Of a stretch of DNA of 64,000 nt, positions 8,238-35,161 are shown piece after piece (the stretch's first letter is position 1; every line of letters begins with the position of its first letter). The notes under the pieces were generated by a model, which saw only the letters and a list, made by a program, of their open reading frames with translations, made no database searches and was not told the origin of the DNA. A program made the translations under genes and the position numbers. The DNA is from Vulcanimicrobiota bacterium (GTDB lineage Bacteria; Vulcanimicrobiota; Vulcanimicrobiia; Vulcanimicrobiales; Vulcanimicrobiaceae): the NCBI GenBank assembly GCA_963820825.1, contig CAWGBN010000006.1, forward strand, positions 352,001 through 416,000. The letters run 5' to 3'.

Positions 8238-8903
8238 TTACTCTAAACTCAGCCGGTGGGTGAGAATCGCCATCTCACCGGCGAGGTCGATGTTTCGCAC
8301 GATGACCGGTCCGCGTAAGTGGAGCGGCATCGGCGCGAAGTTGAGAATCGCGCGAATGCCGAGATCGGCGACGCGCTGCGCGCTCTGTTGAGCGGCTTCG
8401 GCGGGAACGGAGATCACGGCGATGTTGCAGCCCGTCTCGGGAAGTGTCTGCTCCATTTCGTCGGCGCTGCGGACGACGATGCCGTTCCAACGCTGACCGA
8501 TGACGTCGGGGGCGCGGTCGTAGATCGCGGCGACGTTGAAGCGCCGTTCGCGCGCGCTGATGAACGAGGCGAACGCACGCCCGAGATACCCAAAACCAAC
8601 GATCGCGATCCGCCAGTCATGCTCCAATCCTAAGACCCAGGCGAGCTGTTCGACAAGCGGATCGATCGCATAGCCCTGGCCGCGGCGGCCGAAGGGACCC
8701 AGCGCCGAGAGATCCTTGCGTATCTGCGTGCTGGCGATCGTATGCCCGAGCAGCGCGGCGAGTCCGTGCGAGGTGATCGTCCGCTTCCCGCTCGCGTGCG
8801 CCTGTCGAAGCGCCCGATGATACGCGTAGAGCCGGGGGATCGAGACCTCGACCAGGGGCTCGGCCGACTCCAGGCGGCTCGCTTGGAGCTTGGGATCGAT
8901 CAT
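8238..8903 (-). CDS. rex: Redox-sensing transcriptional repressor Rex
   Basis: RLYAYHRAL, TQIRKDLS, FGRRGQGY, GFGYLGRA Rossmann motif, ILNFAP. Confidence 0.9.
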   Translation of the reverse strand: MIDPKLQASRLESAEPLVEVSIPRLYAYHRALRQAHASGKRTITSHGLAALLGHTIASTQIRKDLSALGPFGRRGQGYAIDPLVEQLAWVLGLEHDWRIAIVGFGYLGRAFASFISARERRFNVAAIYDRAPDVIGQRWNGIVVRSADEMEQTLPETGCNIAVISVPAEAAQQSAQRVADLGIRAILNFAPMPLHLRGPVIVRNIDLAGEMAILTHRLSLE

Positions 8904-10198
8904 GCGGTCGCCACGAGGGCGCCGAGCGAGGCGTCGGCGGCCGCAACCGTCCACTCGACGTCGCGCGGCGTATGGGCAGCCGAAAGAAAGTTCGCTTCGA
9001 AGGGCGAGGGAGCGAGGTAGACACCGCGATCGAGCATGGCGCCAAAGTACTTCGCGAAGAGTGCCCGATCGGACTTTTGGGCGCTCTCTAGATCGCGTAC
9101 CGGCTCGGGAACGAAGAAGAGCGAGAACATCGCCCCGGCGCGAGCGACCTGATGCGAGATGCCGTGACGCTGCATCACGGCTGAGAGCCCGTCGCAGAGC
9201 GCGGCGGCCGTCGCGTCGAGACGCTCGTAGAGGGTCGCGTCGCCCGCGACGGCGGTCAGCACGGCGAGCCCGGCCGCCATTGCGATCGGGTTGCCCGAGA
9301 GCGTTCCGGCCTGGTAGACGGGTCCATCGGGAGAGAGGTAGGCCATGATGTCGGCGCGGCCGCCGAATGCGGCAACCGGCAAGCCGCCGCCGATGATCTT
9401 CCCCAGCGTCGTCAAGTCGGGAACGATGCCTTCGAGTGCCTGCGCGCCGCCGCGCGCGACGCGAAAACCGCTCATCACCTCGTCGAAGATCAGCAGCGCA
9501 CCCGATGCCGTGCAGAGCTCGCGCAGCTTCTGCAGATATCCGGGTTCCGGCAGCACGAGCCCCATGTTGCCGGGATACGGCTCGACTATCACCGCGGCGA
9601 TCGAGTCGCCGGCGGCGGCGAAGGTCTTCTGGGCGGCCTCGGTGTCGTTGAATGCTAGAAGGATCGTGTCGCGCGCGACGCCCTCGGTGACGCCGGGCGA
9701 GTTCGGCACTCCGTGCGTCAACGCGCCGGAACCGGCGGCGATCAAGAACGAATCGCCGTGACCGTGGTAACAGCCGGCGAACTTGACGATCTTGTCGCGG
9801 CGCGTGAAACCGCGAGCGAGACGAATCGCCGAAATCGTCGCTTCGGTGCCGCTCGAGACGAAGCGCAGCCGTTCGATCGAAGGCATCATCGAAACGATCG
9901 TCTCCGCAAGCTCGCTCTCGAGCTCGGTCGGCGTTCCGAATGAGGTTCCGCGCGCCGCGGCGTTGGTAATCGCGCGCGTTACCGCGGGATGCGCGTGACC
10001 GAGCAGCACGGCTCCCCACGACATCACGTAGTCGATGTACTCGTGACCGTCGAGATCGTAGAGCATCGCGCCCGAACCGCTCTTCATGAAGACCGGCGAG
10101 AGTCCGACCGCGCCGAGCGCGCGGACGGGCGAGTTGACGCCGCCGGCGATGACGCGCCGGGCCCGCGCAAAGGCGGTGATCGAGCGTTCCAGCTTCAC
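8900..10198 (-). CDS. hemL: Glutamate-1-semialdehyde 2,1-aminomutase
   Basis: GGVNSPVRA, SSGTEAT, GCYHGH, FDEVMSGFR, GKIIGGGLP, AGTLSGNP; GTG start 10198. Confidence 0.95.
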   Translation of the reverse strand: MKLERSITAFARARRVIAGGVNSPVRALGAVGLSPVFMKSGSGAMLYDLDGHEYIDYVMSWGAVLLGHAHPAVTRAITNAAARGTSFGTPTELESELAETIVSMMPSIERLRFVSSGTEATISAIRLARGFTRRDKIVKFAGCYHGHGDSFLIAAGSGALTHGVPNSPGVTEGVARDTILLAFNDTEAAQKTFAAAGDSIAAVIVEPYPGNMGLVLPEPGYLQKLRELCTASGALLIFDEVMSGFRVARGGAQALEGIVPDLTTLGKIIGGGLPVAAFGGRADIMAYLSPDGPVYQAGTLSGNPIAMAAGLAVLTAVAGDATLYERLDATAAALCDGLSAVMQRHGISHQVARAGAMFSLFFVPEPVRDLESAQKSDRALFAKYFGAMLDRGVYLAPSPFEANFLSAAHTPRDVEWTVAAADASLGALVATA

Positions 10199-28974: not shown

Positions 28975-29116
28975 TGACGCCCGCGTGACCTAAAGCCTCA
29001 GAGACGCTCGTCGCTCCGCCTCCGGCTCCGCTCCTGCTGCACTGCCTCCTCGCTTCGCCCTCCATGGCTTCGCTCGTCGGTCAGAGCCTCTTCGTCGTTA
29101 GGTCATGCGGCCGTCA
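28975..29116. repeat. ~140-bp element with 19-bp imperfect terminal inverted repeats between convergent genes
   Basis: TGACGCCCGCGTGACCTAA ... TTAGGTCATGCGGCCGTCA (17/19 complementary); pyrimidine-rich interior with short repeated motifs. Confidence 0.55.
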
Positions 29117-29995
29117 GTCTGCAAGCATCTCTAGACTGAAATCGAGCGCCGGAGCGCTGTGCGTGAGCCAGCCGACGCTGATGACGTCGACGCCGGTGCG
29201 CGCGATCTCCACGACGTTGGCTTGCGTCACGCCGCCGCTCGCTTCGATGACCACGCGTTTGTCGACGATACGGACCGCTTCGGCGAGTTGTGCCGGCGTC
29301 ATGTTGTCGAGCAGGACGGCGTCGATCGGCGCGGCGAGCGCTTCGCGCAGCTGATCGAGGTTATCGACTTCGATTTCGATCTTGATCGTGTGGCCGACTC
29401 GCGCTCGCGTGCCGTCGATCGCGGCGCGGGCGGAGCCCGCGATGACGAGGTGGTTGTCTTTGATGAGCACCGCATCGTCGAGGCCGAAGCGGTGATTGCT
29501 TCCGCCGCCGCAGGCGACCGCATAGCGCTCGAGCGCGCGCAACCCGGGCGTCGTCTTGCGTGTGTCGGCGATCTTGGCGTGCGTTCCGGCGACGAGGTCG
29601 ACCAGCGTGCGCGTTGCCGTTGCGATGCCCGAGAGACGGCAGAGCAGATTGAGCGCGGTCCGTTCGCCGGTGAGAATCGCGCGAGCGCGCGCTTCGATTT
29701 CGGCGACCACGCTGCCGGGCTCGACACGTTCGCCTTCGCCGACGCGCGTTTCGACCGATGTTTCGGGGTCGAGCATTCGAAAGGCGATCAGCGCGAATGG
29801 TAATCCCGCGACGATTCCGCTTTGGCGTGCGACGATGCGGGCCGTCGCTTGTCGTTGCGGGTCGACGATCGCGTCGGTCGTGAGATCGCCGCCGTGGCCG
29901 ATGTCTTCGAGCAGTGCCGCTCGAACGACCGACTCGGCGACGAGCTCAGGCGACGCTGCGTAACCGCGTGAAGGAACGCTTCGCGAAGGCTTCAT
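29114..29995 (-). CDS. nadC: Nicotinate-nucleotide diphosphorylase (carboxylating)
   Basis: EDIGHGGDLTT, ERTALN, DTRKTTPG, NHRFGL, IKDNH, LLDN, EASGG; start uncertain. Confidence 0.93.
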   Translation of the reverse strand: MKPSRSVPSRGYAASPELVAESVVRAALLEDIGHGGDLTTDAIVDPQRQATARIVARQSGIVAGLPFALIAFRMLDPETSVETRVGEGERVEPGSVVAEIEARARAILTGERTALNLLCRLSGIATATRTLVDLVAGTHAKIADTRKTTPGLRALERYAVACGGGSNHRFGLDDAVLIKDNHLVIAGSARAAIDGTRARVGHTIKIEIEVDNLDQLREALAAPIDAVLLDNMTPAQLAEAVRIVDKRVVIEASGGVTQANVVEIARTGVDVISVGWLTHSAPALDFSLEMLAD

Positions 29996-31483
29996 CGCTC
30001 TGCGGATAATCGGTACGGAAGTGGCTGCCGCGGCTCTCGCGGCGCGCGAGCGCGGCGTCGGTAATCAAGCGGCCGACGACGAGCAGGTTGCGCAGGCCGG
30101 GATGCTCGCCGAACTCGGCGATGAGGCCTTCGATTCGCGCAAGCGCTTCGAGCAACGACGCTTCGTTGCGAACCAGACCGACGTTGGAGTACATGACATT
30201 GCGCACGTCGCTGAGCGCTTGGGCCGCGGTGGTGCTTGTGCGGTGCGCGCGGGGAAGCGCCGGCACGTTCATCGAGCCCTCGACGTCGCTCACGGGCGGC
30301 GCGTTGGCAATGTCGCTGGCGACGCGCGAACCGTAGACGAGCGCTTCGAGTAGGGAGTTGCTGGCGAGCCGGTTCGCACCGTGTACGCCGGTTGCGCTCG
30401 TCTCGCCGCAGGCCCAGAGCCGTTCGAGCGTCGTCCGTCCCCACTCGTCGACGGCGATTCCGCCCATGAGGTAATGCGCGGCGGGAGCGACGGGAATGTT
30501 CTGCACGCGCGGATCGATGCCGGCCGCCATGCAGAATCCAAAGACGGTCGGAAAGGCTGCGGGAAACGTCGCGCCGATCGCCGTTCGCGCATCGAGGCCG
30601 ACGCTGCGGCCGCGCTGGAGTTGCTCGAAGATCGCGCGCGCGACGACGTCGCGCGGCGCAAGCTCGGCGTCGGGATGAAGCGCGAGCATGAAGCGCTCGC
30701 CGAGATCGTTGACCAGCGTCGCGCCCTCACCGCGCACGGCCTCGGTGACCAACGGCATCGGGTCGCGTCCGATCGCCAGCGCCGTCGGATGAAACTGCAC
30801 GAACTCCATGTCGGCGAGCAGCGCGCCGGCGCGCGCGGCCATCGCGATGCCGTCGCCGGTCGCCTCCATCGGATTGGTCGTGTAACGGTAGAGCCGCCCG
30901 ATGCCGCCGGTCGCGAGCACGACGGCGCCGGCGCGGAATGCGACGATCGCATTGCTCGCGTTGCCGCGAGCGTAGACGCCGCCGACGCGCTCGCCGTCGA
31001 CGATCAGATCGGTCGCGGTCACCTCTTCGACGATCTCGATCGACGGGTGCACGCGCACCGCTTCGATCAGCGTTTTGAGAATTTCGTGCCCGGTCGCGTC
31101 GCCGCCGGCTTTGACGATGCGGCGGCGCTGGTGCGCCGCCTCGCGTCCCAGCGCGAGTTCGCCGGCCTCGGTGCGGTCGAACGCGCGCACCGAGCTCGAG
31201 CAGCTCTTCGACGCGCGCCGGAGCGTCGCGGGTGAGAATTTCGCACGATCTTGCGATCGCTGATGCCCGCGCCCGCGCGCTGGGTATCGATTGCGTGCAA
31301 TCGCGGCGAATCGTCCTTGCCGATTGCCGCGGCGATGCCGCCCTGGGCCCAATCGGTTGCCGCGCCCTTGCCCAGCCGCGTCTTGCAGAGCACCGTCACC
31401 TTCGCGGGTGCGAGTTTGAGCGCCGCGATCAATCCGGCGATGCCGGCGCCGACGACGATCGCGTCGCTGCGGTGGGTCTCCAT
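29946..31483 (-). CDS. nadB: L-aspartate oxidase (two apparent frameshifts at ~31243 and ~31182)
   Basis: GAGIAGL, WAQGGIAAA, REAAH, EFVQFHPT, TEAVRGEG, AHYLMGG, HGANRLASNSLLE, ESRGSH; position between nadA and nadC. Confidence 0.9.
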
Positions 31484-31491
31484 CGATTGCG

Positions 31492-32517
31492 TCAGTCTCG
31501 TGCCGAGCGGCTGTATTCGAGCATGCGATCGACGGCGCGACGCGCGCGAGCGGCAATCTCCGGCGCGACGGTTACCTCGTACTCCATCGCTTCGAGGCAG
31601 TGGAGCACCTTGGGCAGCGTGTTGCGCTTCATGTGCGGACAGAGATTGCAGGGCCGGACGAACTCGACGTTCGGATATCGCCCCGAGACGTTGTCGGCCA
31701 TCGAACATTCGGTCATCAGCAGAACGCGCGCCCGCGGCTTTCCGGAGACGGTACCGACGTACTCGGTCATGCCTTGCGTCGAGCCGACGTAATCGGCTTC
31801 GGCAAGCACGTCGGGCGGACACTCCGGATGCGCGAGCACCACCAGCGACGGATCGCCTTCGCGGAAGCGGCGCACGTCGTTGCCGGTAAAGCGCTCGTGC
31901 ACTTCGCAGTGACCCTTCCAGGCGATGATCTCGACGTTCGTCTTCGAGGCGACGTATTTCGCCAGGTATTCGTCGGGCAAGAAGATGACCCGCGGCGCGC
32001 CGAGCGCCTCCACGATCTGCAGGGCGTTGCCGCTGGTGACGCAGACGTCGGACTCGGCCTTGACCTCCGCCGACGTGTTCACGTAGGTGACGATCGGCGT
32101 CCCGGGATACCGCTGCCGAAGCAGGCGGACGTCATCGGCGGCGATCGACTCGGCAAGCGAACACCCGGCCCGCAGGTCGGGGACCAGGACGGTCTTGGAT
32201 GGGTTGACGAGCTTCGCGGTTTCGGCCATGAAGTGCACGCCGCAGAGCACGATAACGTCGGCGTCGGTCTGTGCCGCCTGCATCGCCAAAGCGAGCGAGT
32301 CCCCGACGATATCGGCGACCGTGTAGAAGATCTCGGGTACCTGGTAGTTATGCGCCAGGATGACGGCGTTTCGCTCGCGTTTGAGGCGGTTGATCGCCGC
32401 CACGTAGGGAGCGTGCAGCGGCCACTCGACCCGGGGAATCACGTGGCCGACGCGGTTGAAGATCGGTTCGGTCTCAGCCGCGACGCTCTCGGTGTAGGGT
32501 AATTCGATGACGCCCAT
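31492..32517 (-). CDS. nadA: Quinolinate synthase
   Basis: [31 protein letters not shown]-x-VH, AHPEC, CPHMK. Confidence 0.95.
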
Positions 32518-32697: not shown

Positions 32698-32856
32698 ATG
32701 AATCGATGGTTTATTGGCGTCGTTCTCGCCGGAGCGTGCATCGCGGGCGCGGCGACGACCCTCGCTGCGAATGCGCAACCGGTCATGACGCCCTCGCCGA
32801 TGATGTCGCCGATGTCGTCGCCGTCCCCGACGCCTGCCTCGACGATGCGGCCATAA
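32698..32856 (+). CDS. Small secreted Met/Pro/Ser-rich protein (52 aa)
   Basis: AAGGAGG RBS; MNRWFIGVVLAGACIAGAATTLAANA signal-like peptide followed by QPVMTPSPMMSPMSSPSPTPASTMRP. Confidence 0.7.
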   Translation: MNRWFIGVVLAGACIAGAATTLAANAQPVMTPSPMMSPMSSPSPTPASTMRP

Positions 32857-32947
32857 GGTTGCGCGCGGCTTGCGGCACGTCGTGTCGATAAGCCTGTGAG
32901 TAACCAAAATTTCTTGTGGAGGCGTTGTGGACTCGAGGTTAAGCGTA

Positions 32948-32977
32948 TTGAAAACCGATTATCGGTTTTGTTAGCAT
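32948..32977 (+). promoter_or_regulatory. Sigma70-type promoter overlapped by two palindromes
   Basis: -35 TTGAAA (32948-32953), 18-nt spacer, extended -10 TGtTAGCAT (32969-32977). Confidence 0.55.
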
Positions 32978-32983
32978 GCTAAC

Positions 32984-33150
32984 ACTTCGCCCAATGACGG
33001 AGTGCGGAACGTATCGAACCGCGGACGGCAGCACGTAGACGATCTGTCGCCACAAGCGACAAAATCCGAGTGAGGTCGTTCTAACACCGGATCGAAACGT
33101 CGGTGGGAGGCTGCAACGGCTTCAAACAGGCGAGAATGAACCGGCGGTAC
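32984..33150 (+). ncRNA. Unrecognised multi-stem structured RNA (candidate riboswitch or sRNA)
   Basis: Seven nested helices found by hand, with G-U pairs on the + strand; lies between a promoter and a terminator. Confidence 0.5.
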
Positions 33151-33152
33151 AC

Positions 33153-33190
33153 CAAAGCCCGCAGCGTAGGTGCTGCGGGCTTTGTATGTA
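33153..33190 (+). terminator. Intrinsic terminator / attenuator upstream of the OPT gene
   Basis: CAAAGCCCGCAGCG-TAGG-TGCTGCGGGCTTTG 14-bp stem, then TATGTA. Confidence 0.75.
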
Positions 33191-33202
33191 AGAAACCGCT
33201 CT

Positions 33203-35161
33203 ATGGAAAGCCGAGCGGAGCTTACCCTTCGCGGGTTCGTTCTCGGTGCCGCGATCACGCTCGTCTTTACCGCGGCGAACGTCTACCTCGGGCTCAAGGT
33301 TGGGCTGACCTTCGCGTCGTCTATTCCGGCGGCGGTCATCTCCATGGCCGTCCTGCGGGCGTTCCGCAACGCGACGATCTACGAGAACAACATCGTGCAG
33401 ACCATCGCCTCGGCGGCCGGGACTCTTTCGGCAATCATCTTCGTTCTGCCGGGGCTGGTGATGATCGGCTGGTGGAGCGGATTTCCGTTCCTGCAGTCCT
33501 TCGCGATCTGTGCGATCGGCGGAACGCTCGGCGTGATGTATAGCGTGCCGCTGCGGCGCGCGCTCGTGACGGGCTCCGACCTTCCCTATCCCGAGGGCGT
33601 CGCGGCCGCCGAAGTGCTGAAGGTCGGCACCGGCGCGGGTTCGTCGACGGAGCGCAATCGAGCCGGGCTCCTGGCGTTGCTGGCCGGCACGATCGCCTCG
33701 GCCGCGTTTGCCGCAATCGTCGCAACGCGCCTCTTCATCGGCGAGCTCGCCGGCTATTTTCGAGCCGGCGCGGCGACGACCGGCGCCGGCTTCTCGCTAT
33801 CGCTCGCGCTCGTCGGCGCGGGACAACTCATCGGCATCACGGTCGGCACGGCGATCTTCGTCGGTCTCGTCATCGCATGGGGCATCGCAACGCCGCTTCT
33901 AACCGCGCTCCATCCGATGGCGGGCGACGCCGCCGGCGTTGCAACCGCGGTCTGGTCGCATCAGGTGCGCTTCATCGGCGCCGGCGCGATCGGCGTCGCG
34001 GCGCTCTGGTCGCTCGGACGGCTCGTGCGTCCGGTCGTGATGGGTGTCGCCTCGGCGCTCGCCGCGTCGCGCCGCCGTCGTGAATCTGCGGTAGAGCTGC
34101 CGCGAACGGAGCGCGATCTGCCGATCGGCATCGTCGCGCTCATCAGCATCGCCTGCCTCGTTCCGCTCGCGGTGCTCTTCTGGCTGTTCCTCGCAGGCGG
34201 ACGGCTCGCGCCGATCGCGGGAGCGTTGACCGTGGCGGGCGTTGCGTACGTCGTAGTCGCCGGTTTCTTCGTCGCGGCCGCGTGCGGATATATGGCGGGA
34301 CTCATCGGTTCGTCGAACAGCCCCGTCTCGGGCTTGGCGATTCTCTCGGTGATCGGCGCCGCGCTTCTCGTGCTGGCGATCGGAAGCGGACTCACGCACG
34401 TCGCCGCGCTGCCGATGATCGCCTATGCGCTCGTCGTTACCGCGGTGCTGCTCTGCGTCGCGACGATCTCGAACGACAACCTGCAAGATCTCAAGACCGG
34501 ACAGCTCGTCGATGCGACGCCGTGGCGGCAGCAAGTCGCGCTCGTCGCGGGCGTGGCGGTCGGTGCCGTCGTTATTCCGCCGATACTCGATCTCCTCAAC
34601 CGCGCCTACGGCTTCGCCGGCGCGGTCGTCGCCCATAGCGCCGTTGCGCAGCCGCTGCCCGCGCCGCAAGCGACCTTGATTTCCGCACTCGCCAAAGGCG
34701 TGATCGGCGGCGAGCTCGACTGGCGGCTGATCGGGGCCGGTGCGATCGTCGGCGCAATCATCGTCGCGATCGACGAGTTGCTTCGCACGCGCAAGCTGGC
34801 GCTGCCGCCGCTCGCCGTCGGCCTCGGCATCTATCTGCCGATCTCGACGACCGCGCCGGTCGTGCTCGGCGCGGTCCTCGGTTGGTGGTACAACCGCTGG
34901 GCGGCTCGCCAGCGGGATGCCGACCGCGCGAAACAGCTCGGCGTACTCATCGCCTCGGGCTTGATCGTCGGCGAGAGCCTCTTCGGCGTGCTGCTCGCGG
35001 CCTTGATCGTCTTTAGCGGAAAGGCCGAACCGCTCGGTATCGTCGGCGATGCGTTCACGCCGACGGCGACGGTGCTCGGCGCGCTCGCGTTCGTCATCGC
35101 GATCGGCGTGCTCTTTCAAACGGCGCGCTCGCTGATCCGCAAGACGCCGCAGTCCGCCTAG
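33203..35161 (+). CDS. OPT family oligopeptide transporter
   Basis: ELTLRG, NVYLGLKVG, ENNIVQTIASA, LPYPEG, GSSNSPVSG, NDNLQDLKTG, LPAPQA. Confidence 0.95.
   Translation: MESRAELTLRGFVLGAAITLVFTAANVYLGLKVGLTFASSIPAAVISMAVLRAFRNATIYENNIVQTIASAAGTLSAIIFVLPGLVMIGWWSGFPFLQSFAICAIGGTLGVMYSVPLRRALVTGSDLPYPEGVAAAEVLKVGTGAGSSTERNRAGLLALLAGTIASAAFAAIVATRLFIGELAGYFRAGAATTGAGFSLSLALVGAGQLIGITVGTAIFVGLVIAWGIATPLLTALHPMAGDAAGVATAVWSHQVRFIGAGAIGVAALWSLGRLVRPVVMGVASALAASRRRRESAVELPRTERDLPIGIVALISIACLVPLAVLFWLFLAGGRLAPIAGALTVAGVAYVVVAGFFVAAACGYMAGLIGSSNSPVSGLAILSVIGAALLVLAIGSGLTHVAALPMIAYALVVTAVLLCVATISNDNLQDLKTGQLVDATPWRQQVALVAGVAVGAVVIPPILDLLNRAYGFAGAVVAHSAVAQPLPAPQATLISALAKGVIGGELDWRLIGAGAIVGAIIVAIDELLRTRKLALPPLAVGLGIYLPISTTAPVVLGAVLGWWYNRWAARQRDADRAKQLGVLIASGLIVGESLFGVLLAALIVFSGKAEPLGIVGDAFTPTATVLGALAFVIAIGVLFQTARSLIRKTPQSA

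Follow-up and report, generated by a model that had tools for sequence, protein, structure and literature searches.

Within a 64,000-nucleotide (nt) stretch of a Vulcanimicrobiota bacterium genome (contig CAWGBN010000006.1, positions 352,001 to 416,000; hereafter the window, whose numbering and + strand apply throughout unless stated otherwise), we analyzed a short element located immediately upstream of an OPT-family transporter gene, and find that it is best read as a stand-alone gene for a structured RNA with a DnaA-box-type promoter, and not as a riboswitch of the OPT gene. We show that promoter, RNA and terminator are conserved and duplicated as one unit. An initial annotation of the same DNA, made from the letters alone, had proposed a transcriptional OFF riboswitch controlling the OPT gene, with a stand-alone small RNA outside Rfam as its fallback; our analysis supports this fallback, and the gene downstream proved variable, which the annotation itself had named as favoring an RNA acting in trans.

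Structure of the RNA and its transcription signals

The predicted noncoding RNA is about 205 nt long (32984..33190), with both ends predicted, and its assignment draws on fold stability, homologues and covariation. It lies behind a sigma-70-type promoter (32948..32977), with a −35 element TTGAAA and an extended −10 element TG-n-TAGCAT, which is the sole consensus match in 1.2 kb (1 found, versus 0.2 expected from shuffles) and is conserved in the family, i.e., the extended −10 motif occurs in 79 of 79 members checked, and the letters TTG, TA and T are invariant across 63 aligned promoters. The initial annotation had named this promoter (TTGAAA-N18-TAGCAT with a TG extension) and a structured RNA behind it, and both are borne out, the window RNA folding at −88.9 kcal/mol (z −3.81, with 0 of 200 shuffles as stable). 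At the 3′ end, a hairpin with a weak U tail (33153..33190), 97% paired and with double changes at four pairs, is a likely intrinsic terminator, and a script detected a 3′ hairpin in all but one of 102 members. The hairpins at 33004-33022 and 33045-33061, the terminator hairpin at 33153-33184 and the OPT start at 33203 that had been listed are all present. A leader peptide is not conserved, since no more than 43 of the 102 members have an ATG among their first 40 nt and the arms of the RNA carry insertions and deletions of any length. The element has its own promoter, its own terminator, a covarying structure and no conserved open reading frame, and the unit is very probably transcribed.

In the fold conserved by the family, which we refer to as the revised fold, four elements lie side by side. 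P1 (32984..33003) is a 5′ hairpin, ACUUCG/CGGAGU, identified from the alignment and the fold of the window sequence, with a loop that varies in length between members. P2 (33004..33022) is a hairpin that is 98% paired, with one pair changed on both sides in 22 sequences, and P3 (33023..33081) is a long, irregular arm identified by covariation, in which all six base pairs of P3a show two-sided change and which is shorter in some members (L066 and L081). The P4 arm (33087..33144) consists of an outer stem (33087-33090/33141-33144), a conserved stem containing a purine-A mismatch (33098-33104/33126-33132) and an apical hairpin (33107-33123); its stems are 99% and 96% paired in the alignment, and the outer stem is 95.5% paired within the genus, with its cross-genus covariation judged by eye only. 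Using an alignment of 64 sequences (L068, L082, L100, L114 and near-duplicates were left out of the model alignments), we observe that 94.1% of cells are paired in the revised fold, with 194 double-sided changes versus 54.8 in shuffles, a number that 0 of 500 shuffles reach; these counts of double changes are inflated by relatedness, and slid controls drop to 31-42% paired. P2, P3 and P4 are supported by covariation, as is the pseudoknot described below.

The helices first proposed (32986-32991/33129-33134, 32999-33003/33119-33123 and 33028-33032/33110-33114, with a hairpin at 33085-33105) do not hold as the conserved fold, as only 64.4% of cells are paired in the same 64 family members. The complementary letters on which they were based do exist in this genome, and the check on homologues that had been suggested did reveal a conserved, covarying RNA, but with a different fold from the one drawn. 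A further proposed helix, 33036-33044/33074-33083, was not counted separately, and both of its strands fall inside the revised P3 arm. The lowest energy for the window sequence, −86.3 kcal/mol, is reached by the revised fold (versus −74.3 for the OFF fold of the initial annotation), with pair probabilities of 0.98-1.0 as against 0.0 for the earlier helices. The AUCGAA letters that had been noted in two hairpin loops are present as a trait of the genus; one of the two is a strand of the pseudoknot, and its letters change in other genera.

This pseudoknot, which the initial annotation did not notice, pairs the loop of P2 (33011-33016) with the bases before the terminator (33145..33150), and was identified by pairing tests over the family. 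It reaches at least five pairs in 77 of 92 distinct members, compared with 39% of random windows (L085 was dropped from this count), and does so with wholly different letters in distant members. Among 15 hand-picked divergent members, 12 reach five Watson-Crick pairs with their own partner strand, versus 29 of 210 swapped pairs. The letters of the loops and of the pseudoknot turn over while the pairing persists.

Comparison with Rfam 15 gave no match in the window at the gathering threshold and only terminator-level matches at E ≤ 10, and no match on the RNA genes in seven further loci, as the initial annotation had expected of a novel RNA. That it recognized no T-box, 6S, signal recognition particle (SRP) or transfer-messenger RNA (tmRNA) consensus is also borne out. 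There is no UGGN bulge of a T-box; 6S RNA (RF00013) is a rod with a central bubble, whereas the window RNA is a string of hairpins, and the genome has a distinct 6S candidate at another locus, which scores 34.5 bits, below the threshold. SRP RNA and tmRNA were found elsewhere in five of five relatives, with this genome among them for tmRNA, and RNase P RNA was found at other loci in four of five; in this genome (G000), which is 85% complete, neither SRP RNA (small model) nor RNase P RNA was found. No PF05731 (Ro60/TROVE) match was found in this incomplete genome and no tRNA was called at the locus, which speaks against a bacterial Y RNA, and glmS, pistol, hepatitis delta virus and hairpin ribozymes and bridge or omega RNAs were set aside on their known features, with no match in Rfam and neither a recombinase nor a nuclease evident next to the loci. 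The raiA motif RNA, ModT (RF03072), is similar in being about 200 nt, highly structured, pseudoknotted and of no assigned function, but has a closing P1 formed from its 5′ and 3′ ends and two pseudoknots (PMC12968392), whereas the window RNA has a local 5′ hairpin and a single pseudoknot, and does not match RF03072. In full-text searches of the accessible literature, supplements of motif-discovery papers excluded, no account of this RNA came up.

Predicted DnaA boxes at the RNA gene and at minC

Three phased, DnaA-box-like direct repeats, absent from the initial annotation, lie upstream of the promoter at 32895-32903, 32915-32923 and 32926-32934, with an A/T tract separating boxes 1 and 2. They end 13 nt upstream of the −35 element, a position compatible with activation. 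In 101 of 102 members, a TGTGGATAA-like motif (≤2 mismatches) occurs within 160 nt upstream and on one strand only; these motifs cluster at about −90, −70 and −60 (2.5 per region, versus 0.2 in shuffles), with a spacing that is constant to about one base. In 89 of 102 members, box 1 departs from the DnaA consensus TTWTNCACA (PMC13438810) at no more than one position. The same tandem motif is found upstream of dnaA in this genome, precedes minC, and also occurs beside dnaB- and ftsA-like genes, which were named by eye from their translations. Ranking this genome with a box matrix placed its two RNA genes first (52.3 and 51.2), followed by minC (19.1), with only the window copy of the two RNA genes having been used in training the matrix. 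Based on these boxes, DnaA is probably the factor that acts at them; MraZ- and PafBC-type sites were considered and rejected because of the fit of box 1 to the DnaA consensus and the presence of the motif before dnaA. DnaA activates or represses depending on its own nucleotide state, and the box arrays of nrdAB and gidAB-parAB resemble those described here in lying upstream of the −35 element, matching TTWTNCACA and combining high- and low-affinity-type boxes (PMC13438810). The product controlled here differs in being a noncoding RNA, and DnaA binding is predicted from sequence.

We fetched 20 secondary box matches, each from a different place in other genomes, and 15 of these directly precede minC. 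The minC-minD promoter (in this genome on contig C6 near 151265, − strand; also L433 and L442-L460) carries the three-box geometry throughout the order, and in one genome of the family f3 (L495), and this array is predicted to place division-site control under a conserved input from DnaA. A locus from another family of the phylum (L434, G183:C65) contains a long, AT-rich tandem array of perfect TGTGGATAA boxes that resembles an origin or a DnaA-box cluster. In addition, six f3 genomes (L491-L494, L496 and L497; e.g., G045:C89 near 8740-9050) contain a different conserved RNA of about 250 nt behind an inverted box array. It has a TTG..TATACT promoter and a terminator of its own, is a string of hairpins whose loops may pair, matches no Rfam family and is followed by an MFS-like gene in most loci; this RNA may be a functional counterpart in the sister order. 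Immediately upstream of the boxes in the window, an open reading frame for 52 residues (32698-32856) has a signal-peptide-like start, a Pro/Ser/Met-rich tail and no Pfam family.

Family range and neighboring genes

The RNA family is spread over the Vulcanimicrobiales, usually as two paralogues. Names of proteins from relatives assign this genome to Candidatus Cybelea within that order. A BLAST search found the region in 32 of 36 congeners and in 0 of 24 more distant genomes. Our first model, built from 29 congeners, detected the RNA in 74 of 115 family genomes, often twice, and in 0 of 3 genomes of f2 and 0 of 32 of f3; the second detected it in 25 of 25 congeners, mostly as two copies, and in 51 of 71 family genomes. 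More diverged members, including some in family f2, were found by reading the DNA beside the WYL gene described below, and a third model, comprising the promoter and the first two hairpins, gave a match in 66 of 71 family genomes and 1 of 1 in f2, a few of these matches being short and box-only. The second copy in this genome (C2:228802-228967) shares 105 identical positions over about 170 with the window copy. In genus g12 (Vulcanimicrobium-type genomes), tandem arrays of three to four units occur, each with its own boxes and promoter, and with some units shortened. One locus near a contig end (L435, G124:C6), with two identical RNA units and partial WYL gene copies in inverted orientation, is probably an assembly artefact.

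Beyond this range, no full-length member was found in samples of 32 f3 genomes and of other families of the phylum. Weak R2 matches in f3 and f20, together with five other weak matches, were discarded as lacking a promoter, and short R3 matches outside the order were box-only. A pattern scan of all genome contigs gave no real member among 80 loci scored of the matches listed, where chance and rpsB matches dominate; two pattern scans of viral contigs gave no full-length member (80 of 120 and 6 of 6 loci scored, respectively), and plasmid and phage collections contained no match.

Examination of the genes next to the RNA at 85 loci from 69 genomes showed a gene encoding a WYL-WCX protein at 56, an OPT gene at 10 and other genes at 19, in a sample that under-counts the OPT loci of congeners and includes some loci first found through the WYL gene. 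One paralogue faces the 3′ end of the WYL-WCX gene, which is convergent, and the other precedes an OPT gene or unrelated genes. In a tree of 64 RNAs, one clade with support 0.96 is WYL-linked, with 23 copies beside WYL and 2 beside other genes; the remaining copies, 30 beside OPT and 9 beside other genes, form a group with weak support. The OPT gene of the window (33203..35161; PF03169, TIGR00733) is a neighbor of this paralogue only.

The convergent gene encodes a wHTH-WYL-WCX protein, with DriD and PafBC as its best solved matches. When 23 metagenome loci were chosen by the WYL protein alone, the RNA was found just downstream, on the opposite strand, in 19; of the four loci without it, three have <100 nt of downstream DNA and one has 563 nt. 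An orthologue of the WYL gene is present in 18 of 19 f1, 3 of 3 f2 and 0 of 8 f3 genomes, a range like that of the RNA. DriD and PafBC share the wHTH-WYL-WCX architecture, with a WYL domain of Sm fold that binds single-stranded nucleic acid (PMC9186387, PMC6789036), and WYL domains have been proposed to bind RNA (PMC6789036). In the subfamily described here, the equivalents of DriD Tyr168, Arg178, Tyr192 and Arg204 appear to be kept, whereas the position of Arg207, loss of which impairs activation in DriD (PMC9186387), is Ala or Val in 36 of 37 rows (one being unread), and the β4-β5 loop (e.g., L102:966-1946) reads R-x-F-A-x-D, without two arginines that DriD has there, in 36 of 37 rows. Since the Arg207 position is Ala or Val, the ligand of these proteins may differ from plain single-stranded DNA; the available text on DriD and PafBC describes no dedicated cognate noncoding RNA for either. 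A secreted-looking, His-rich protein of about 170 residues (G000:C2:228179-228652, − strand; L423:5500-6012) is encoded beside the WYL gene and the RNA in many genomes; it has no Pfam family, and its Atlas look-alikes are unnamed clusters.

Elsewhere in the window, a nicotinamide adenine dinucleotide (NAD) synthesis cluster (29114-32517, − strand) is divergent from the element, with nadA and nadC identified by Pfam and a nadB-like frame between them (29946-31556) that seems to start in a frame other than that of its N-terminal motif; the Rfam scan of the window gave no NAD riboswitch match.

Action of the RNA, rival explanations and meaning

We propose, with a probability of about 0.5, that the element encodes a stand-alone RNA of about 200 nt under DnaA control, whose pseudoknotted shape acts in trans on a protein, the WYL-WCX regulator being the leading candidate. 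DnaA bound to the three phased boxes just upstream of the −35 element would set transcription of the RNA in step with that of minC-minD, so that RNA output would follow DnaA state, as in nrdAB and gidA. The RNA would form a compact pseudoknot with two long variable arms, with hairpins protecting both ends, and the OPT gene would be a neighbor of this paralogue. Action by shape on a protein is suggested because pairing is kept while letters change and because no pairing in the genome stands out: we found no pairing above shuffles with the start regions of minC (13 genomes, mean z −0.02) or of WYL (16 loci, mean z +0.43), the only two mRNA candidates tried, which led us to reject antisense action on either, and no complement of the RNA in its own genome better than E 0.45. 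Binding to a protein is, in our judgment, somewhat favored over base-pairing and catalysis as the way the RNA works; that the WYL-WCX protein is the partner is a tentative proposal, and on balance a doubtful one.

The riboswitch first proposed resembles transcriptional riboswitches and T-box leaders in that, for this paralogue, a structured 5′ RNA and a terminator stand before a transporter gene, and all 30 congener loci fetched have an OPT gene behind the RNA; in the window it starts 18 nt behind a hairpin with a weak U tail. The genes 3′ of the RNA are, however, variable and mostly convergent, with no consistent same-strand class; a riboswitch cannot act at most WYL loci because the WYL gene is convergent, and 9 of 39 members of the OPT-type clade have no OPT gene. 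The mutually exclusive terminator and antiterminator that had been described do not stand either. Antiterminator pairing in the 30 congeners is not above shuffles (210 of 500 shuffles), although its inner half is 95% pairable in the genus, with no double-sided change, and the antiterminator fold is about 18 kcal/mol costlier than the revised fold (−68.5 versus −86.3). There are also few invariant unpaired bases that could form a ligand pocket. In 24 of the 30 congener loci (including L003 and L005), an AAGG-N12/17-G(C/G)GCAA motif, probably an alternative-sigma promoter, lies behind the terminator and 10-16 nt before the OPT start. This motif is absent from the window and from five other congener loci, which makes a leak-through reading conceivable here, and OPT expression in this genome may depend on read-through. 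A ligand-sensing OFF switch at the OPT-linked copy, possibly as a secondary cis role of one paralogue, appears to us highly improbable.

The remaining alternatives keep the RNA or its boxes and change what they do. CcnA of Caulobacter crescentus is a stand-alone, mRNA-pairing RNA of 182 nt that is tied to a cell-cycle regulator and whose gene has weak DnaA boxes (PMC8959179), and by its size and its cell-cycle-type promoter the window RNA could likewise regulate mRNAs by base-pairing, with paralogues that differ in loops and arms dividing the targets between them. CcnA is distinguished by its origin location, its activation by CtrA and its pairing with ctrA and gcrA mRNAs (PMC8959179), whereas the window RNA lies away from dnaA, occurs in multiple copies and contains a pseudoknot, and has no sequence or model match to CcnA; its conserved letters sit in stems and not in single strands, and, given that no pairing stands out with the two targets tried or elsewhere in the genome, we regard this as unlikely. 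Slightly less so, and still improbable, is that WYL and OPT are mere neighbors and that the RNA, present in abundance, serves a different protein or the machinery of replication or division as a scaffold or sponge, or self-assembles like raiA, ROOL and GOLLD. The unit moves and multiplies as a module, many members have long arms with GNRA-type loop caps, and some genomes have the WYL gene and no detected RNA, all of which would fit, but the WYL linkage is tight over two families and no other partner was identified. A DNA-level function, i.e., titration of DnaA or a datA/DARS-like site whose transcription clears DnaA, draws on the strongest box arrays of the genome lying here and on tandem arrays that multiply the boxes; against it, the extensive compensatory change with G-U pairs shows selection on an RNA fold. 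Ribozymes typically have a compact pseudoknotted core, as this RNA has, but known ribozyme cores have invariant letters, and here the core letters are not invariant in distant members and no ribozyme family matched. These last two possibilities together are very unlikely.

Several observations weigh against an RNA that acts through its shape on the WYL-WCX protein under DnaA control. Only two to four pseudoknot pairs are present in 15 of 92 distinct members, mostly of the OPT-type clade, and the pseudoknot of the window copy is modest, with six pairs that include one G-U and three in a Watson-Crick run. The first two helices of the initial annotation are 96-98% pairable within the genus, with no double-sided change, and its alternative pairings can still form by sequence there. 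The second and third boxes are degenerate, and direct TGTGGA repeats of this kind could be the sites of a different regulator, while pairing with mRNA was examined for minC and WYL only. The common range of WYL and RNA is explained equally well by kinship, the linkage may be inherited synteny, the OPT-type clade thrives away from WYL, and in several genomes that carry the WYL gene (e.g., G062, G067, G069, G101 and G123) no RNA was detected.

The RNA is likely an undescribed family in a new arrangement, of the broad type of stand-alone bacterial noncoding RNAs, and order-wide families of structured RNA with readable control logic are rare. It would represent a new class of cell-cycle RNA if DnaA induces it, together with minC-minD, as a dedicated pseudoknotted ligand of a WYL-WCX factor with a remodelled nucleic-acid pocket, a proposal that we consider speculative and improbable as a whole. 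If true, replication status would reach transcription via a purpose-built RNA instead of damage-derived single-stranded DNA, with tandem arrays tuning the dose, and it may be one case of a wider pattern of DnaA-box-driven noncoding RNA genes, since the sister family has a different RNA of about 250 nt behind the same box array. The system is testable, as the WYL protein of G061, which carries a three-unit array, is named as a protein of Vulcanimicrobium alpinum, a species reportedly in cultivation, and the RNA is small enough for probing and cryo-electron microscopy. Few WYL regulators have an assigned natural ligand, and here an atypical protein of this group is found together with a dedicated RNA. 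The array of boxes that the RNA shares with minC suggests that replication initiation and control of the division site are connected with a noncoding RNA.

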